A stretch of DNA of 64,000 bases from Bdellovibrionales bacterium (GCA_044378055.1 JBILXY010000002.1:27122-91121); one strand, 5' to 3'. Counted from the stretch's first letter, positions 2 to 63,450 are shown. Translations and numbers: made by a program. The notes: generated by a model from the letters alone, not told the origin.

Positions 2-3000
2 AACTCGGTACGGTTTAGTTACGGAAATTTTGACGACCCCTTGAACAGGCCAAGTACAGCCGATATTTTATTCACCCTAACAGTTACCGACACACCATTT
101 GCCGATGGAGTTAATTTAGTTAACCAGGTTCGTTCCAATGTTGGAACCACCAATTCGGTAGGCCAAGTAGCCGATGCTATAGTTCCTGTTATTCTTTCAT
201 TGCCTGGATTAAACACTACCAAAGGCATAGTTTCCAGCGATGTTCCTGCAGCAGTTTATACACCGGTAACCAGAGGGCCTGTTACTTTCAACAACCCAGG
301 TGGTGCAAGTTGTACTTTAGCCAATCACAGATTTACTGGAACAATTAATTCAACTAACAGAACCGCAACACCAATCACAAGTAACATAAGCGGTTTAGAC
401 GCAGGCGATTTAGTAACCATGGTAACTACTGTTGAAAATACTGGTCTTGGGCCAAAAGGAGCCTTTAATGTTACTTTAAACGATGTTTTACCAGCAGGGC
501 TTACAATTCCAACAGGAGGATTAAATTTATGTGTTACCAACGGGGCCGGAACTCCATTAGCCTTTACCCCTGTAAACCCATTAGATACAAACCCATGGGT
601 ACAAAGTGGAATTAGGTTGACCGACCCAAGTGGAATTCAAGGCGCAATTTCAGCTTTTGATGCCACAAGTGGAACAAATATTGTGGTTATAAGTTATGAC
701 TTAGCTGTTGCAACTTCCGCTTCACCTAGGCAGGTATTAACGAACCAAAGCATTCTTTCTAATTATACTGCTTCTGCTGCTGGGCCAAACTTTCTTTCTT
801 CTTCCTTAACCGATTCAGCTAGTGTAACTTTAAGGGCTGGAACAACTGCCAAATCAATTCTTGGCACTAACCAAGCTAGTACTGCTGGTTTAAATGTAGC
901 CATTGGTGAACAAGTTCAATATAGGGTGGTGGTTACTGTTCCAGAAGGAACCTCGGCAAGTTCAACTATTGTGGACACATTGGATTCTGGGCTTGCTTTT
1001 GTTTCTGTAGATTCAATTACTTCCAGTTCAACCGATTTAACAACCAGTATAGTTGGTGGTTATCCAACAGTTTTAGCTAACCGGGTTGTTTCAAGTAGCG
1101 GGGCTGGCGCGACCAATGCTGGAAGAGTTCTAACTTTAAACTTTGGTACTTTAACCAATGTGAACACCAATAATGCCGTAGCAGAAACCATTACCATTGA
1201 TTATACAGTTGTGGTTATAAATACCGCAGGAGCCGTTCGTGGAACTAACTTAAATAACTCTGTTGTTTATAACTGGAATAATGGTTCTGCCCAAAGTTTA
1301 GCGACCGTTTCAGCAACCAATGTTGTAGTTGTAGAGCCAACTTTATTAACCAGCAAAACTGCCAGCGTGGCCACTGGAGACGCCAATGATATTATTACTT
1401 ACACCGTTACAGTAAACCATTCCGGAGCTTCAAACTTAGCAGCATCAGAGGTCAGCTTAAGCGATATTATTCCTGCTGGAATTACTTACCAAACTGGAAC
1501 TTTAGCCTATTTTTCAGGTGCTGTTCCAACTACTTTAACCGAAGCTAGCGGAACTATTACGGCCACCTGGACAACATTCCCGCTTGCAACAACTTCTGTG
1601 TTTAGATTCCAAGCTATAGTAAATACCAATGTAAATCCTTCACAACTTATTGCCAATGTGGCCAACACCCAGTGGACTTCTTTACCAGGAATAATTTCCA
1701 CCACTCAATCCACTTTCAACACCTTAGCCACAGAAAGAACAGGAAATGTAGGTGATGTTGGAGGTGCTGCAAACAATTACAGGGCTGCAGGAACTGCCAA
1801 CTTTACTGTACTTGGAACTATTCCTTTAAAAACTATTGTTACCACTTCCGAAAGCTTCACTGGAAATGTAGCTGGTGTGGAAAGATTAGCAGTTGGTGAA
1901 ATTGTAAGATACAGAATGGCCATTCGTGTACCTGAAGGAATTACCCCGGCTCTTGTTTTAACCGATAACCTGCCAGCTGGGCTTACCTTTATTAATGATG
2001 GAACTGCACTTTATGCCACAAGTTCAAACGGAGGTGTGGTTTCAAGCGTAGGTGCTTTGGCTGTTGGTTGTGATCAAGTAGGTTCTAGCAATGCAATTAC
2101 TGCCACTTGTGCTATTCCGGGTGGAAATATTACTGGAAGCCCATTTAACGATGGAACTGACCCAAGTTTTGTGCTTGGAAGCATTACTAATACCGATAAT
2201 GATGTTAATGAAGAATTCGTTATTGTGGAATTTAATGCTTTAGTTTCCAATGTGGCTGGTAACCAAGCCTTCAACCAAACTACTTCGGCAGTTACAAATA
2301 CAACTTTAGCTAACACTTTCCAAAGCTTTATTAATACATCTACTCTGGTTGGAACTTCAACAGCCCTTAACATTCAAGTGGCAGAACCATTGATTAATAA
2401 TTTGGCTGAATCTTTAGTAGTTGTTCCTACCGATGCTGGTGATCCGATTGAATATAATATTACTTTCAGTAACACTGCCACTGGAAATAATGCATCCCCA
2501 GCTTTTGATTTAACTTTGGTTGACCAACTAAGTTCTAACTTTGATTTGTTAACTGTTACCGTAACTTCTAAACCTGGATACACCAATGTAACCGACAATT
2601 CTGTTACCCCAACTGGACTTGCAAGCTTAGTTTTTGATAGATTAAACCCAGGTGATTCAATTACAGTAAGAATAACCGGACAAGTTATAAGTGCCTTTAA
2701 CCTTGGTGGTAATTTACAAAGCAATCCAAGTTTAAGATACACTTCCCTACCTGGAACTGGAACTGCTTCTAACCCAACTGGTTCTGTTACCCCAATTAGC
2801 CCTGCAACTTCAACTGAAAGAACTGGAACAACCTTGCCAGCTCAAAACGATTATCAGACTTTTGCTTCCTTTAATATTCCAACAGGTACAAATATTGGTG
2901 TCGATAAAATTACACCTGCAATCACCAGTTATACCATTGGTGAACAGCCAGTTTTCGACATTAGAGTTAACCTGCAAGAAGGTGTTATAAACAGTGTGAG

Positions 3001-7462: not shown

Positions 7463-7473
7463 CCCAAATGCAG

Positions 7474-7492
7474 GGGAATGCTTGCCATTCCC
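7474..7492. repeat. GC-rich hairpin GGGAATG-CTTGC-CATTCCC. It belongs to the 'GGG..CTTG..CCC' family also seen at 38853, 39074, 39147 and 56607.
   Basis: A perfect 7-bp stem lies 12 nt after the stop of the giant gene. It is not followed by a T-tract, so it is not a canonical terminator. Confidence 0.6.
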
Positions 7493-7553
7493 GTTGAGGG
7501 CCGTAGCGTCGAACGCGGATCGACATGGATCGACATGAAAAAAAACGAGGCCC

Positions 7554-7594
7554 ATTCTCCCTTGTAAAGGGAGGTGCCCAACGGGCGGAGGGTT
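7554..7594 (+). repeat. Two-hairpin GC-rich repeat, family B copy.
   Basis: Sequence ATTCTCCCTTGTAAAGGGAGGTGCCCAACGGGCGGAGGGTT. Hairpin 1 is CTCCCTT/AAGGGAG, hairpin 2 is GCCC-AAC-GGGC, and a G-rich tail follows. Confidence 0.7.
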
Positions 7595-7643
7595 AGAAGC
7601 GTAGGCAAAGGGAAGTTGGAGGGTTATTGGCAAAACTGACACC

Positions 7644-7689
7644 AATTCCCCCTTGAGAAGGGGGTGGCAACCGCAGGTTGACGGGGGTT
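7644..7689 (+). repeat. Two-hairpin GC-rich repeat, family B copy.
   Basis: Sequence AATTCCCCCTTGAGAAGGGGGTGGCAACCGCAGGTTGACGGGGGTT. Hairpin 1 is CCCCCTT/AAGGGGG, hairpin 2 is CAACC-GCA-GGTTG, and the tail is GACGGGGG. Confidence 0.75.
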
Positions 7690-7711
7690 AAAAAAACTCC
7701 CCTTGCGGGGA
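7689..7711 (-). terminator. Intrinsic terminator downstream of tRNA-Thr.
   Basis: The minus strand reads TCCCC-GCAA-GGGGA followed by GTTTTTTTAA, 12 nt after the tRNA 3' end. Confidence 0.7.
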
Positions 7712-7722
7712 ATTAAAATTTC

Positions 7723-54140: not shown

Positions 54141-55895
54141 ATGAATAATTTAGACTTTTCCGCCTTCCTAAATTCCGAAATTAAAACTGATTCGGGCTTT
54201 CAATTTGGTAAAATTCCTGCTTCCAAAACTGCCATCGATTTAGTTTTTATTCACGATCCCAAAACCAAAATAACAATTTATACAGCTGTTAGTGCTAGTC
54301 AGTATCCTTTTCAATCTGTGTTAGCTTTTGCCGGAGCTAGATATTCCCGGGCGGATGGTATTATTTCAATTCTTTCCCAAATTCAAGAAAGCAATACAAA
54401 TGCCGATAAAAAACTTGGAAACATTGTAAATAATTACGGTCATTCAAGTGTGGCTGAAATGGCCAATATTCCTATTTACATTGAAGGTTTAACCAAATTT
54501 CAAAGCGAACGATTGTTTCATTTAAGTGCCATTTATTCTGGCCAAGAAAGATCAAGCCGGTACCAGAAATTAGATGGAATGCAACCAGTTAGCTTAGGCA
54601 AATATTTTAGAGAAGGCGAAACTTTAAATAATGAAAATATGGATGATGAAGGCCTATTTAGCGATGCAGGTCTATTTAACCAAACTACAGAAGACAACTT
54701 TTTGTACACAGAGTTTGAAAATATTCAGAGATTAGCCAAAGCAAATTATTTAGAATTTTTCCAAAAAACCCAAGATTTTTATATTAACCACTTTAGTATC
54801 GATACAAACAGTAAAAAGGAAATGAACACTGTTATAAGCCGAAGCTTAGATACTGCCAGGTATTTTCTACCGCTTGGTGCCATGCATACCACTTCTATGG
54901 CCTTGTTTACCAACGCCCGGGAATGGTCTAGGCTGATAGGGCAATTACAAAGTAAAACAGATTTAGAGGCTATAAATATTGCAGCCATGCTTAAACATCT
55001 TCTTGCTCCAACCGAGGAAATAGCATTGCAGCTGAATTATACCCCTGAAGCTGCGGAATTAATTCGTTATACAAGTGCCGATGAAATTACTGGAGACAAT
55101 CTTCAAACTTTGCAAAATTATTTAGAAACCTTGGAAACTTTTCAGAAATTGGTTGATTCAAACTTTAATGAAATTAAATTTATCAATGCCGAGGCAACTT
55201 TATTCGGAGATAAATTAAGCTCTGGGGGGAAGCTGATTTTGCAGAATATTCTTTGTTTATACCCCACCCTAAATATTGCAAAATTATCTGTTTGGTTGCA
55301 AAGTTTAAGCAAGAACGAAGCAGAAAAGCTTGGTACTATTTGTTTCCAGAATTTTAATCATCACAGACAAATTGGTCAGCCACTTTCAACTAATCAAGTT
55401 AGTTTTGAACTTAAAACCGATTTTGGGGCCATGATGGATTTAAACCGGCACAGAGCTTGGGGCAGATTTAACCCAATTTTTAACTATCTAAACTTTTCAA
55501 CCGACTTGATTAAAAATGGTTTTGTTTTGCCTCTTTATCTAACGGAGATTCCAGAAATGAAAGCAATAAAAGATGAGTTTGAGAAAAGAATGCTTGAATA
55601 TTATAAACAAGTGGAAATATTCTGGAATGATGCTTCGCAAGTTGAAAATTTCCCAAAACAAGCTCTGATTGATTTATTACCCCTAGCCCACAACGCCAAT
55701 ATTTTAATGCACGCTTCAGCCAAGGAAATTGATTATATGACCAAACTTAGGGTAAGGCCAGGAGGACATATAAATTACCGTTTTTTGGTTTACCAAATGC
55801 AGCAAGAAGTAATCAAAGCCGACCCATTCTTCAGACCCCAGGAACTTACAAAACCAGATTCCAACTCCAAAGCAGAATTCATGGATAGAAGTTAG
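54141..55895 (+). CDS. Long ThyX-like (flavin-dependent thymidylate synthase family) protein, apparently a tandem duplication of the ThyX fold.
   Basis: The first half has SERLFHLSAIYSGQERSSRYQ, where S.RY is kept and RHR is degraded to FHL. The second half has MDLNRHRAWGRF, where RHR is kept and no S.RY follows. LRVRPGGHINYRF lies near the C-terminus. Confidence 0.5.
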   Translation: MNNLDFSAFLNSEIKTDSGFQFGKIPASKTAIDLVFIHDPKTKITIYTAVSASQYPFQSVLAFAGARYSRADGIISILSQIQESNTNADKKLGNIVNNYGHSSVAEMANIPIYIEGLTKFQSERLFHLSAIYSGQERSSRYQKLDGMQPVSLGKYFREGETLNNENMDDEGLFSDAGLFNQTTEDNFLYTEFENIQRLAKANYLEFFQKTQDFYINHFSIDTNSKKEMNTVISRSLDTARYFLPLGAMHTTSMALFTNAREWSRLIGQLQSKTDLEAINIAAMLKHLLAPTEEIALQLNYTPEAAELIRYTSADEITGDNLQTLQNYLETLETFQKLVDSNFNEIKFINAEATLFGDKLSSGGKLILQNILCLYPTLNIAKLSVWLQSLSKNEAEKLGTICFQNFNHHRQIGQPLSTNQVSFELKTDFGAMMDLNRHRAWGRFNPIFNYLNFSTDLIKNGFVLPLYLTEIPEMKAIKDEFEKRMLEYYKQVEIFWNDASQVENFPKQALIDLLPLAHNANILMHASAKEIDYMTKLRVRPGGHINYRFLVYQMQQEVIKADPFFRPQELTKPDSNSKAEFMDRS

Positions 55896-55963
55896 AGAAA
55901 GTTCAAACAAAATGATACTTTGATATAAAAACGAGTACAAGTTAAACCTATTGCGAAACTAAA

Positions 55964-56049
55964 AATTCCCCTCTTGAGGCACTGGTACAGTTCGGGTTTC
56001 CCGAACGACATGAGTGTCCGAAGGGTGGCAGTCGCAGACTGACGGGGTG
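55964..56049 (+). repeat. Family B repeat copy interrupted by a ~44-nt nested GC-rich insertion.
   Basis: AATTCCCCTCTTGAGG[CACTGGTACAGTTCGGGTTTCCCGAACGACATGAGTGTCCGAAG]GGTGGCAGTCGCAGACTGACGGGGTG. Hairpin 2 is CAGTC-GCA-GACTG. The insert carries its own hairpin GTTCGGG-TTT-CCCGAAC. Confidence 0.7.
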
Positions 56050-56156
56050 TTTTTCATAATGATAAGCTATCACATTCACTCTAATAAGAAAATTAGCGAG
56101 CTTAACAACAACTCCCCCAATAAAAAATCACCCTCAGTTAAAAGGGTAATTCGCCG

Positions 56157-56762: not shown

Positions 56763-58493
56763 CTACCCCTTCCTCCAAAGCCCGTATCCCCATGGATAAT
56801 CGTCTATTTGGAAACCTAATTTATCTATTTCTTTTCTTAATTCATCACTTTTTTGAAAATCTTTTTCAGCCCTTGCCTTCAATCTTTCTTCGGCTAATTC
56901 TTCAGACTTTTGGTATTTGGAAAGCAATTTGTCTTCCGAAGTTTTATCTATATTAAACAAACCTAAATTCAACAGATTTAAATCAAACTGAGCAACAATA
57001 TCATAAATCCCAGGGTCGATAAATTGCGCTTTGGTAGCTAGGTTAGATAATTCTGAAAGTTTAGCCTGATATTCTTCCAAAAACTTGGCTGTGTCTAAGT
57101 TATTACAAAGTATTTCAAGCCATTCTTTTTTAAGATCCGTAGAGGAAACCGCCTGCTTTCCATGTGAAGTGGATGTTGAGGCGACACTCGGGTCGTCGTT
57201 GGCAGTCAATTCACCTAAACTTGAAATATACGAACTTATTTTAGCCGCGTCTTTTCTTAAATTATATAATCTGTTTTGGGCCTGAGCCATTTTATCCCAA
57301 GTAAAATTCATCTGATCTTGGTAATTGTGTTCAAACATTAACAATTTGTAAGCCAGCGGATCGAAACCTTTTTCAATAATATCCCACATGGTATAGCTAT
57401 TTCCAAGGCTTTTACTCATTTTTCCGCCATCAATTAAAAGGTGTTCAAAATGCACCCAATATTTAGACAAATGAAAACCCAAAGCTTCAGATTGGATTAT
57501 TTCATTCTTATGATGAATGGGAATATGCTCAATTCCCCCGGTGTGTAAATCAATTTCGTATGATGGAGAGATGGCTTTTGAAAATAGCTTATTCGGGTTT
57601 GAAAAACGCTTCTGTCCAATTATTTCGCTGATCATAGCTACACATTCGCTGTGCCAACCTGGGCAACCCCATTTAAAATCTATGGCTGTTGGATAAATAA
57701 GCTTAAAAACTTCGTCAGCTTTCATTTTTGCGAAAATTGCTGGTGGCCTTCCCTGCTCTATTTCTTGATTAAAACTGTCTGAACCAATTCCTAATTCTTC
57801 AGATATTTCCAAGAAAATATTTTTAGGCTGCTGAAAATCTGTAAACCTCCATTTTTGTAGTGAATTTTCATCAACAAATTTCCACAAAGCAAAATCAGCA
57901 GAGTTTTTTAAGTTGTTTACAATATGCCTTCCTGTATAGTTGCTATCGTTTTTAGAGTTTGAATTATCCTGCTCATCTTCCCTGCTATCATAATAAATTC
58001 CATCTTCCAATAAATAGGCTTTTCCGATTTTCAATAATTCCAAAGCTAAGATCATCTGCTCTTGAATGTAATCGGTGGCCATTGGCATCATTTTTCCTGC
58101 CGGCAAATTTAAACCAAGTTTTGAAGCCTGTTGTAAATAATCAGATAAATAAAAATCTATTATTTCTTTCACAGTTTTTCCATCTTTTTTCGCAGCTTTT
58201 TCCACCTTGTCTTCTGAATTAGAAACATTTTGACCATCATCACCATCGGCTACTAAATGCCCTACATCAGTGATATTTAAAACCCAATCAACTTGCCAGC
58301 TTGCCAGTTTAGCCAGTTTTGCAACTGTATCATTAAACCAAGCAGCCCGCATGTTTCCAATGTGCTGGTAACTATAAATTGTAGGGCCGCAAGAATATAA
58401 TTTTAAGGTATTAGGAACAACAGTTTCTTCTGGTTTTATATGAACAAATTCTTTCTTATAACTATCAAAAAGAGTAATAGGCAATGGCTGCAT
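56763..58493 (-). CDS. cysS: Cysteinyl-tRNA synthetase (with insertions).
   Basis: LYSCGPTIYSYQHIGNMR (HIGH-type motif), KMSKSLGN (KMSKS), and WGCPGWHSEC. Confidence 0.85.
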   Translation of the reverse strand: MQPLPITLFDSYKKEFVHIKPEETVVPNTLKLYSCGPTIYSYQHIGNMRAAWFNDTVAKLAKLASWQVDWVLNITDVGHLVADGDDGQNVSNSEDKVEKAAKKDGKTVKEIIDFYLSDYLQQASKLGLNLPAGKMMPMATDYIQEQMILALELLKIGKAYLLEDGIYYDSREDEQDNSNSKNDSNYTGRHIVNNLKNSADFALWKFVDENSLQKWRFTDFQQPKNIFLEISEELGIGSDSFNQEIEQGRPPAIFAKMKADEVFKLIYPTAIDFKWGCPGWHSECVAMISEIIGQKRFSNPNKLFSKAISPSYEIDLHTGGIEHIPIHHKNEIIQSEALGFHLSKYWVHFEHLLIDGGKMSKSLGNSYTMWDIIEKGFDPLAYKLLMFEHNYQDQMNFTWDKMAQAQNRLYNLRKDAAKISSYISSLGELTANDDPSVASTSTSHGKQAVSSTDLKKEWLEILCNNLDTAKFLEEYQAKLSELSNLATKAQFIDPGIYDIVAQFDLNLLNLGLFNIDKTSEDKLLSKYQKSEELAEERLKARAEKDFQKSDELRKEIDKLGFQIDDYPWGYGLWRKG

Positions 58494-63216: not shown

Positions 63217-63258
63217 AATCCACCTCTTGAGGGGTGGCAGGCAAAGCCTGACGGGGTG
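63217..63258 (+). repeat. Two-hairpin GC-rich repeat, family B copy.
   Basis: AATCCACCTCTTGAGGGGTGGCAGGCAAAGCCTGACGGGGTG. Hairpin 2 is CAGGC-AAA-GCCTG. Confidence 0.75.
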
Positions 63259-63406: not shown

Positions 63407-63450
63407 TTCCCCTCTTGAGGGGTGGCAAATTCAAAGAATTTGACGGGGTG
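63407..63450 (+). repeat. Two-hairpin GC-rich repeat, family B copy.
   Basis: TTCCCCTCTTGAGGGGTGGCAAATTCAAAGAATTTGACGGGGTG. Hairpin 2 is AAATTC-AAA-GAATTT. It lies 11 nt beyond the stop of the 63461 gene. Confidence 0.75.

Follow-up and report, generated by a model that had tools for sequence, protein, structure and literature searches.

The copy of a family-B repeat at 55966-56049 of the analysed window (a stretch of DNA of 64,000 nt) carries 44 extra nucleotides, which we take, on balance, to represent a discrete module of about 45 nt with hairpin structure, here called alpha. The module resides in loop 1 of repeats resembling the BoxC/PIT/TM intrastrand-triplex elements and appears to be gained, lost or copied there as a unit. 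At least five scaffold families contain both copies with the whole of alpha and copies with none of it, and the module reassorts with hairpin 2 as well as with the type of scaffold. Its strong matches are confined to loop 1, its stems covary across genera, and its occupancy differs between close relatives. The copy at 55966-56049 itself is inherited, not freshly inserted; presence or absence of the module at one exact position, together with the differences in occupancy, supports its turnover or mobility. The scaffold is of a known (though unexplained) kind of repeat, whereas the modular variant with alpha in loop 1 is new.

The split copy and its parts

The window belongs to a 1.0-Mb assembly of 34% GC in 34 contigs (G000), whose CysRS homologues are labelled Patescibacteria, Parcubacteria and SR1. 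The element starts 70 nt 3' of the stop codon of a thyX-like gene, and the neighbouring genes are convergent. The thyX-like gene (54141-55895, plus strand) encodes 584 aa, about twice the usual length, and two stretches of its product match the Thy1 (ThyX) family. The sequence at 55966-56049 reads TTCCCCTCTTGAGG, followed by 44 nt (CACTGG...CCGAAG, 55980-56023; CACTGGTACAGTTCGGGTTTCCCGAACGACATGAGTGTCCGAAG) and then by GGTGGCAGTCGCAGACTGACGGGGTG. Its parts are as follows.

55953..55965, plus strand: conserved 5' leader GCGAAACTAAAAA, common to many family-B copies
55966..55973, plus strand: arm A (TTCCCCTC), pyrimidine arm of hairpin 1, whose partner in short forms is GAGGGG
55974..55979, plus strand: TTGAGG, which by alignment to short copies is the short-form loop TTGA and the first two G of arm B
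55980..56023, plus strand: the 44-nt insert, the alpha module, with recurrent copies (64.5 bits with the covariance model R2)
55978-55983 with 56013-56018, plus strand: outer stem of alpha, GGCACT/AGTGTC
55984-55990, plus strand: conserved GGTACAG of alpha
55990..56006, plus strand: apical hairpin of alpha, GTTCGGG-TTT-CCCGAAC, which is predicted to fold and has compensatory changes in 6 of 7 pairs across genera
56006-56009, plus strand: conserved CGAC of alpha
56020..56027, plus strand: GAAGGGTG, remainder of arm B (purine arm)
56029..56041, plus strand: hairpin 2, CAGTC-GCA-GACTG, a variable cassette, with the same hairpin 2 in five genome copies
56044..56049, plus strand: arm C, GGGGTG, mirror of arm B (GAGGGG, A read as T), candidate third strand
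56050..56054, plus strand: T-run, a 'T-type' 3' end

The covariance model R1, whose 16 rows include four long forms with the insert excised by hand and which served for detection only, matches the window at 55963-56052 (G000:C6:83084-83173) with 49.9 bits. About ten family-B copies have (G)CGAAACTAAAAA or ACTAAAAA directly 5' of TTCCCC. Arm B contains GGG in the split copy and in its orthologue, and GGGG in other copies. It should be added that the words flanking the apical hairpin of alpha (55984-56014) mirror each other (GGTACAG / GACATG(A)G), an echo of the mirror arms of the scaffold.

An earlier note on this DNA had described a family-B copy split by about 44 nt, and this description holds: deletion of 55980-56023 yields the exact canonical 40-nt short form, and the flanks align to more than 13 uninterrupted copies in the genome (e.g., C7:25567, C12:13752, and C4:7794), the last of which is a short form with the same hairpin 2 as the split copy and without the insert. 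The hairpin that the note had seen within the insert is present at 55990-56006 and is also predicted by single-strand folding. The proposed kinship of the insert with the stretch 7505-7540 (a CGAACG...GACATGA segment) did not stand up, since the best local alignment, 10 of 11 nt, is at chance level, being attained in 3% of shuffles and in 14% of the GC-rich windows of the genome. The stretch 7505-7540 is part of a different repeat, a GTAG-tagged REP-like unit which, its tandem 10-mer included, is kept in a relative's contig. A small ORF on the minus strand of the element (ATG...TAG, MKNTPS...QEGNF) was considered and found unlikely: only about half of the copies have CAT and CTA at a suitable distance, there is no ribosome-binding site, and the start codon is missing in many copies.

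Scaffold repeats of the triplex type

The whole-genome search gave about 26 copies of family B in G000, and a covariance model gave 24 matches. The common short form, of about 40 nt, is TTCCCCTC-TTGA-GGGGTGGC-[hairpin 2]-GACGGGGTG, often preceded by GCGAAACTAAAAA, so that the order of parts is pyrimidine arm, purine arm, variable hairpin 2 and mirror purine arm. Hairpin 1 is a Watson-Crick stem, CCCCTC / GAGGGG in short copies and CCCCT(C) / (GA)AGGG(G) in the copy under study, where alpha splits it. The third arm, GGGGTG, is neither a repeat nor a complement of GAGGGG; it is its mirror. The same rule holds in copies whose arms differ in sequence: GAGGGG is followed by GGGGTG, AAGGGGG by GGGGGTT, AAGGGAGG by GGAGGGTT, and GAAGGAGG by GGTGGAAA, the last pair in a family of another genome, G016, with the arms TTCCTCC / GAAGGAGG / GGTGGAAA. 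Genome-wide, 40 loci with a mirror third arm were counted; the reversed genome has 12, and a third arm in direct repeat was found at 20. Further copies within the window are listed below.

7553-7600: mirror-arm copy, TCTCCCTT / AAGGGAGG / GGAGGGTT
7646..7689, plus strand: uninterrupted variant copy B', CCCCCTT / AAGGGGG / hairpin 2 CAACC-GCA-GGTTG / GGGGGTT, 100% conserved in the relative's contig L009
10989..11013 (C6:38110), plus strand: remnant copy without hairpin 2 (TTCCCCTTTTGAGGAGTGGATTC); at this place L009 contains a complete alpha-long copy and about 330 nt more
63219..63258, plus strand: short-form family-B copy
63407..63450, plus strand: short-form family-B copy with hairpin 2 AAATTC-AAAG-AATTT, which is seen with alpha in the relative's contig L012

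The segment forming loop 2 is about 16-21 nt long and includes a hairpin of 11-17 nt, and loop 1 of the split copy measures about 48 nt. The loops of hairpin 2 are mostly C-GNA-G, a very stable mini-hairpin motif of DNA. Both loops accept other modules: delta, a conserved 46-nt module, replaces hairpin 2 three times in G000 and occurs in G001 and G017 as well, and loop 1 in G012 hosts two unrelated modules, beta and gamma. One family-B copy of G000 outside the window (C8:11921-12042) has alpha in loop 1 and delta in place of hairpin 2. Of 26 genomes belonging to the same taxonomic family, 17 contain family B, which is missing from all 35 genomes of other families.

The first island of the window (7465-7720) was compared with L009 (1-350). 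Where G000 has a family-A triplex copy, L009 has a GTAG-type REP hairpin, and a further REP is found only in L009; in the B' copy and the tRNA-Thr flank the two agree at 100%. In G016, dozens of contigs start or stop about 27-57 nt from copies of one repeat, and the repeats thus fragment the assemblies.

The positions and 3' ends of the copies bear on whether the element works as RNA, i.e., as a 3'-UTR structure or as an intrinsic terminator or stabiliser of the upstream thyX, with alpha only lengthening a stem. We consider this improbable. It is true that 17 of 23 copies in G000 lie just 3' of a co-directional ORF, often between convergent genes, and that the split copy, 70 nt past the thyX stop, is co-oriented with thyX and has TTTTT at its 3' end; RNA folding, moreover, predicts that CCCC would pair with the 3' GGGG ahead of the U-run. 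However, the 23 family-B copies of G000 have two types of 3' end, GGGGTGTTTnCCAT and GGGGTGGAT, with a T-run in about half of the copies and GGAT in the rest. The terminator scan makes no call at the split copy, and this result and the inconsistent T-runs make a simple terminator unlikely. No match to Rfam was obtained at the gathering threshold in the window, and none even at E <= 1 in 55850-56150. The third arm mirrors arm B and is not the complement of arm A, and in family A base-pairing with arm A is not possible. RNA is reported not to form purine-motif triplexes, and no terminator activity was reported for PIT elements (PMC4666352). Copies of the repeats also stand in frame within genes and as inverted pairs around DUF559 genes.

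Distribution and structure of alpha

G000 contains six copies of alpha1 and a degenerate one, each flanked by the TTGA and the GGGG of a scaffold of family B or B', and the addition of three alpha3 copies in family C and one alpha2 copy in family A brings the total to about 11 scaffolds. Alpha with up to three mismatches was found in one other genome among 60 relatives (G009, of a different genus) and in the same context. When the exact core pattern was searched in one genome per species (185,579 species), only G009 matched, and the JGI metagenomes contributed eight alpha copies on seven contigs, all in the same composite context. The alpha of G009 matches at 35 of 36 nt, and the one stretch of flanking gene that was aligned is about 67% identical.

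Matches to the alpha covariance model (R2) occur in genomes of five genera of the family (f1) and in none of 134 genomes from other families of the phylum. This search also placed alpha-type modules in loop 1 of family C, of family-A-like scaffolds and of several families of G023; the family-C scaffold (TACCCCT-GGTAAG..AGGGGTC..GGGGGTAG) with such a module has three copies in G000 and six in G001. All strong matches lie in loop 1 of triplex-type scaffolds. Two matches stand outside any scaffold, and both are weak, i.e., G014:C15 (26 bits, a solo alpha2-like module) and G025:C121 (21 bits). The search for the insert as an independent element, which the earlier note had suggested, found it never free-standing in G000. 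An alpha2-type module of G000 outside the window (C8:81476-81522) lies in loop 1 of family A in an orientation inverted relative to all other cases.

The 14 alpha1 copies have a mean pairwise identity of 93%, yet they are accompanied by 12 different hairpin-2 sequences. Diverged alphas (in G016, G022, G003, and G009) keep GGTACAG or GTGCAG 5' and CGAC 3' of the apical hairpin, and covariation of the stem is pronounced: both sides change in 11 of 13 pairs, a value reached by 0 of 500 shuffles, with 2-6 in slid controls. The DNA folding energy is modestly better than that of shuffles (z = -1.95), as calculated by nearest-neighbour folding, which ignores triplets. In predicted folds, alpha forms a coaxial extension of hairpin 1 and does not disturb the three arms, and this would account for its being tolerated at this place. 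The outer stem, GGCACT/AGTGTC, can be read as 6-bp terminal inverted repeats. The words that flank alpha are imperfect (GAGG/GAAG, GAA/GAA, AAG/AAG), and such a flanking duplication could simply mean that the base of arm B requires purines.

As to its origin, alpha might have arisen by partial duplication of the 3' half of the repeat itself (arm B, hairpin 2, and arm C) and not be foreign. The two seem to share a layout of GGT-RC-A(G), a hairpin, (C/T)GAC and a G-rich word; the alpha2 of G009 and G003 reads GTGCAG-hairpin-CGACCTACGGGGCAC as compared with GGTGGCA-hairpin-TGACGGGGTG of the scaffold, and the apical hairpin lies between mirror words, as in the scaffold. However, the apparent likeness is short, and the G-run is lost in alpha1. 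We find such a duplication decidedly improbable, and it would concern the origin only, leaving the later reassortment unexplained.

Reassortment and occupancy at orthologous loci

Alpha is separable from the other parts of the repeat. Four types of hairpin 2 (CAGTCGCAGACTG, CTCTGAAAGAG, AAATTCAAAGAATTT, and delta) occur both with and without it. In G023, a family of 47 copies with an invariant hairpin 2 was sampled for 30 copies, among which 24 were short, five carried alpha at an identical position and one carried another module. Two alpha haplotypes were distinguished in this genome, CCGTA..TACGG/CGACGCA and TCGTA..TACGA/CGACACA; they differ by a compensatory change in the stem and a linked change in the bulge, and each is found in several scaffold families with different arms. 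Loss alone is insufficient to produce this distribution, which calls for some exchange or insertion. The three alpha subtypes of G000, in contrast, follow the scaffold family, a pattern that resembles long co-residence more than a recent invasion.

Orthologous loci were compared by means of relatives' contigs with 83-96% identity to G000, in which six loci with alpha were aligned; all of these sequences are short-read assemblies. The orthologue of 55966-56049 was found in the contig L015, with flanks 93% identical over 1.3 kb and 97-100% identical within ±100 nt of the element. Arm A, alpha and arm B, the rare GGG included, are identical to those of G000, and the only difference is in hairpin 2, CTCC-GTA-GGAG (11 nt) instead of CAGTC-GCA-GACTG (13 nt). 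The two hairpins are unrelated and both are perfectly paired, while the other approximately 70 nt are identical. The identical hairpin 1 and alpha mean that the composite was inherited at this locus and that hairpin 2 is a swappable cassette; because variants of hairpin 2 recur in other copies and in other genera, replacement from another copy is the simplest reading.

The intact and interrupted alleles that the earlier note had proposed to look for in related genomes do exist, as orthologous loci differ in alpha occupancy. At C11:5981, G000 has the short form and L013 has alpha, and hairpin 2 and about 45 nt of the 3' flank differ too. At C8:65070, alpha is present in L010 and L011, and the copy of G000 is 5'-truncated with a short-type junction, TTGAGGGG, and only one loop base separates its hairpin 2 from that of L010. 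As alpha occurs in the more distant L010 and also in the closer L011, parsimony suggests its loss in G000. At C6:40016 and C12:58727 nothing comparable exists in G000 and relatives have alpha (L009 and L012 are among the carriers at remnant or empty loci). Occupancy of G000 by alpha at one of the six loci points to fast turnover. In L012, an extra segment of 1.4 kb contains two ORFs for membrane proteins, has no DUF559 and shows no clean insertion. The genome G001 of the same genus has thyX with neighbours differing from those of G000, and in genomes of the genus g16 the genes are 65-74% identical and the intergenic DNA is unalignable.

These comparisons bear on a reading in which alpha is an ancestral, integral domain of the repeat, with short forms produced only by repeated precise deletion (slippage between GA(R)G/GAA words) and with no insertion ever having occurred. 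Hairpins between short direct repeats are known hot spots of deletion; removal of alpha leaves a perfect short form, the parsimonious event at C8:65070 is a loss in G000, and the subtypes of alpha follow the scaffold family in this genome. On the other hand, the two haplotypes spread over several scaffold families in G023 are impossible to obtain by loss alone, one copy of alpha is inverted, and the loops of 3-6 nt in TM-ECO (PMC4666352) make the short form look like the general ancestral design. We regard exclusive deletion from an ancestral long form as rather unlikely.

It could also be supposed that the mosaic patterns are assembly artefacts, i.e., repeat-induced chimeras in metagenome assemblies, as all of the data come from short-read MAGs or contigs, assemblies break at repeats and many contigs of G016 end in one. 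Nevertheless, assemblies made independently (G000, G009, and those of four different JGI metagenomes) contain the same composite, and the unique flanks on either side of the locus are collinear with L015 over 1.7 kb. We give this explanation hardly any credence.

With the preferred reading of alpha as a discrete module, the inference of the earlier note that a nested insertion implies mobility is upheld in part. The 44 nt do represent a discrete unit, found at one exact position in several repeat families, reassorting among them and differing in occupancy between relatives. What did not hold is the picture of an independent element jumping into this particular copy, since the same composite is present in the orthologue L015 and in the other genus represented by G009.

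Comparison with known repeats

The closest counterparts of the scaffold are the BoxC, PIT and TM-ECO intrastrand-triplex repeats (Bergler 1992, Hoyne & Maher 2000, cited in Holder et al. 2015 (PMC4666352)). In sequence, the repeats described here share with them a C-rich arm, a complementary G-rich arm and a second G-rich arm mirroring the first (putative triplets G.G-C, T/A.A-T). They are likewise multi-copy and mostly intergenic, with loci variable between strains; TM loci, too, sit in variable regions (PMC4666352). No partner protein is in print for those elements either. The TM-ECO consensus, CCCTCNCCC-N3-6-GGGNGAGGG-N3-GGGNGAGGG, has arms of 9 nt, a first loop of 3-6 nt and a second of 3 nt (PMC4666352). 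The arms here, in contrast, are of 6-8 nt (CCCCTC), differ in sequence from the 9-nt CCCTCNCCC and depart from this consensus. Loop 2 is a whole, always paired hairpin of variable sequence instead of 3 nt, beyond the short-loop limit, and loop 1 may hold the conserved hairpin of about 45 nt (alpha), beta or gamma. The ITxF search for triplexes permitted loops of 1-6 nt only (PMC4666352) and would thus miss all of these repeats.

Several other classes of elements offer partial parallels. REP/BIME and REPIN-RAYT sequences are also short GC-rich hairpins with conserved unpaired flanking bases and mosaic modules, stand at the 3' ends of genes and are thought to act as folded single strands. In alpha, by contrast, GGTACAG or GTGCAG precedes the hairpin and CGAC follows it, in place of GTAG; the module is single and does not form inverted doublets, has its strong matches only inside the loop of another repeat, and is not accompanied in G000 by a Y1_Tnp hit (Pfam PF01797, no match at E <= 0.001). 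The element-in-element structure, the dimorphism of long and short forms and the copies readable in frame inside genes recall nested MITEs, ERIC with internal inserts, pneumococcal BOX and Rickettsia RPE. Unlike MITEs, alpha has no strong free-standing copies and no clear terminal inverted repeats or target duplications, and its target is a single site within a folded repeat instead of a sequence word that recurs throughout the genome. Integron attC sites and IS200/IS605 ends are similar in being recognised as folded single strands that tolerate a variable centre and keep conserved flanks. The element was rejected as a member of either class, having no R/L-box (GTTRRRY) core, no cassette arrays or integrase and no TnpA/TnpB gene nearby.

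Possible mechanism and significance

We suggest that the repeats act as folded single-stranded DNA, for which the mirror arms, the stable C-GNA-G loops and the restriction of purine-motif triplexes to molecules other than RNA all argue. Alpha would then be gained, lost or copied at the single-stranded tip of the folded hairpin while the DNA is single-stranded. Its gain might be due to insertion targeted by structure or to template switching from one copy to another, and its loss to slippage between the short flanking words GA(R)G / GAA. The composite as a whole may be spread by the scaffold's own spreader, a candidate for which is a DUF559 (Vsr-like) nuclease cassette. Against this account, recurrent precise loss from alpha-bearing ancestors would lead to the same dimorphism, and the inverted and the solo alpha are single instances, the solo one being weak-scoring.

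Still more tentatively, alpha may be a 'rider', i.e., a mobile non-coding hairpin whose sole target is the single-stranded apex of another folded repeat, a structure-recognised parasite of a parasite. We treat this as a possible, though not the favoured, form of the explanation. If it were true, the loops of the triplex scaffold would be a landing pad that collects modules (alpha, beta and gamma in loop 1, and delta at hairpin 2).

In the 30 years since intrastrand-triplex repeats of the BoxC/PIT/TM kind became known, no function, partner enzyme or means of spreading has, to our knowledge, been assigned to them. In the lineage analysed here, triplex repeats are modular, with conserved accessory hairpins in both loops and an accessory module that reassorts between scaffolds, and hairpin 2 was swapped at one locus with the rest of the element identical. 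The short and alpha-long forms and the variants of hairpin 2 are concrete substrates for assays of recognition by the candidate DUF559 nuclease or another enzyme, and alpha and the hairpin-2 variants can be used as natural markers of exchange. Searches for triplex motifs that are in print allow loops no longer than 6-10 nt and overlook entire sub-classes of such elements. For the annotation of Patescibacteria, these repeats account for part of the hyper-variable intergenic 'islands' and for some odd in-frame inserts in genes.

DUF559 genes and other candidate enzymes

A DUF559 hit was obtained in 13 of the 17 genomes with family B and in two of the nine without it; the genomes are related and incomplete, and the co-occurrence is only suggestive. 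Among the best 150 of 293 R1 matches, at least five DUF559 genes are bracketed by inverted family-B copies (in G009:C2, G009:C33, G024:C71, G017:C47, and G003:C100), and at the DUF559 gene of G025:C140 one flanking copy is among the matches listed. In the case of G009:C2, the copy at the 3' end of the DUF559 gene is an alpha-bearing long form. No enzyme tied to alpha was found in G000, where the only DUF559 gene (C11:22128-22436) adjoins a family-C short form without alpha.

The locus of G009:C2 (L008, JBIKIW010000063.1, 1-4300) is a type I restriction-modification locus. Within its hsdS-like ORF, family-B copies are translated in frame (PLLRGGTxGDGVD), and its DUF559 ORF (973-1776, minus strand) lies between inverted family-B copies, with a reading frame that crosses the alpha-long copy. 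As regards cysS, located in the window at 56763-58493 (minus strand), some CysRS homologues of relatives contain an embedded DUF559 (P0058 and P0088) or RayT/Y1_Tnp (P0070 and P0101) domain, and these domains look like mobile cassettes read in frame inside cysS.
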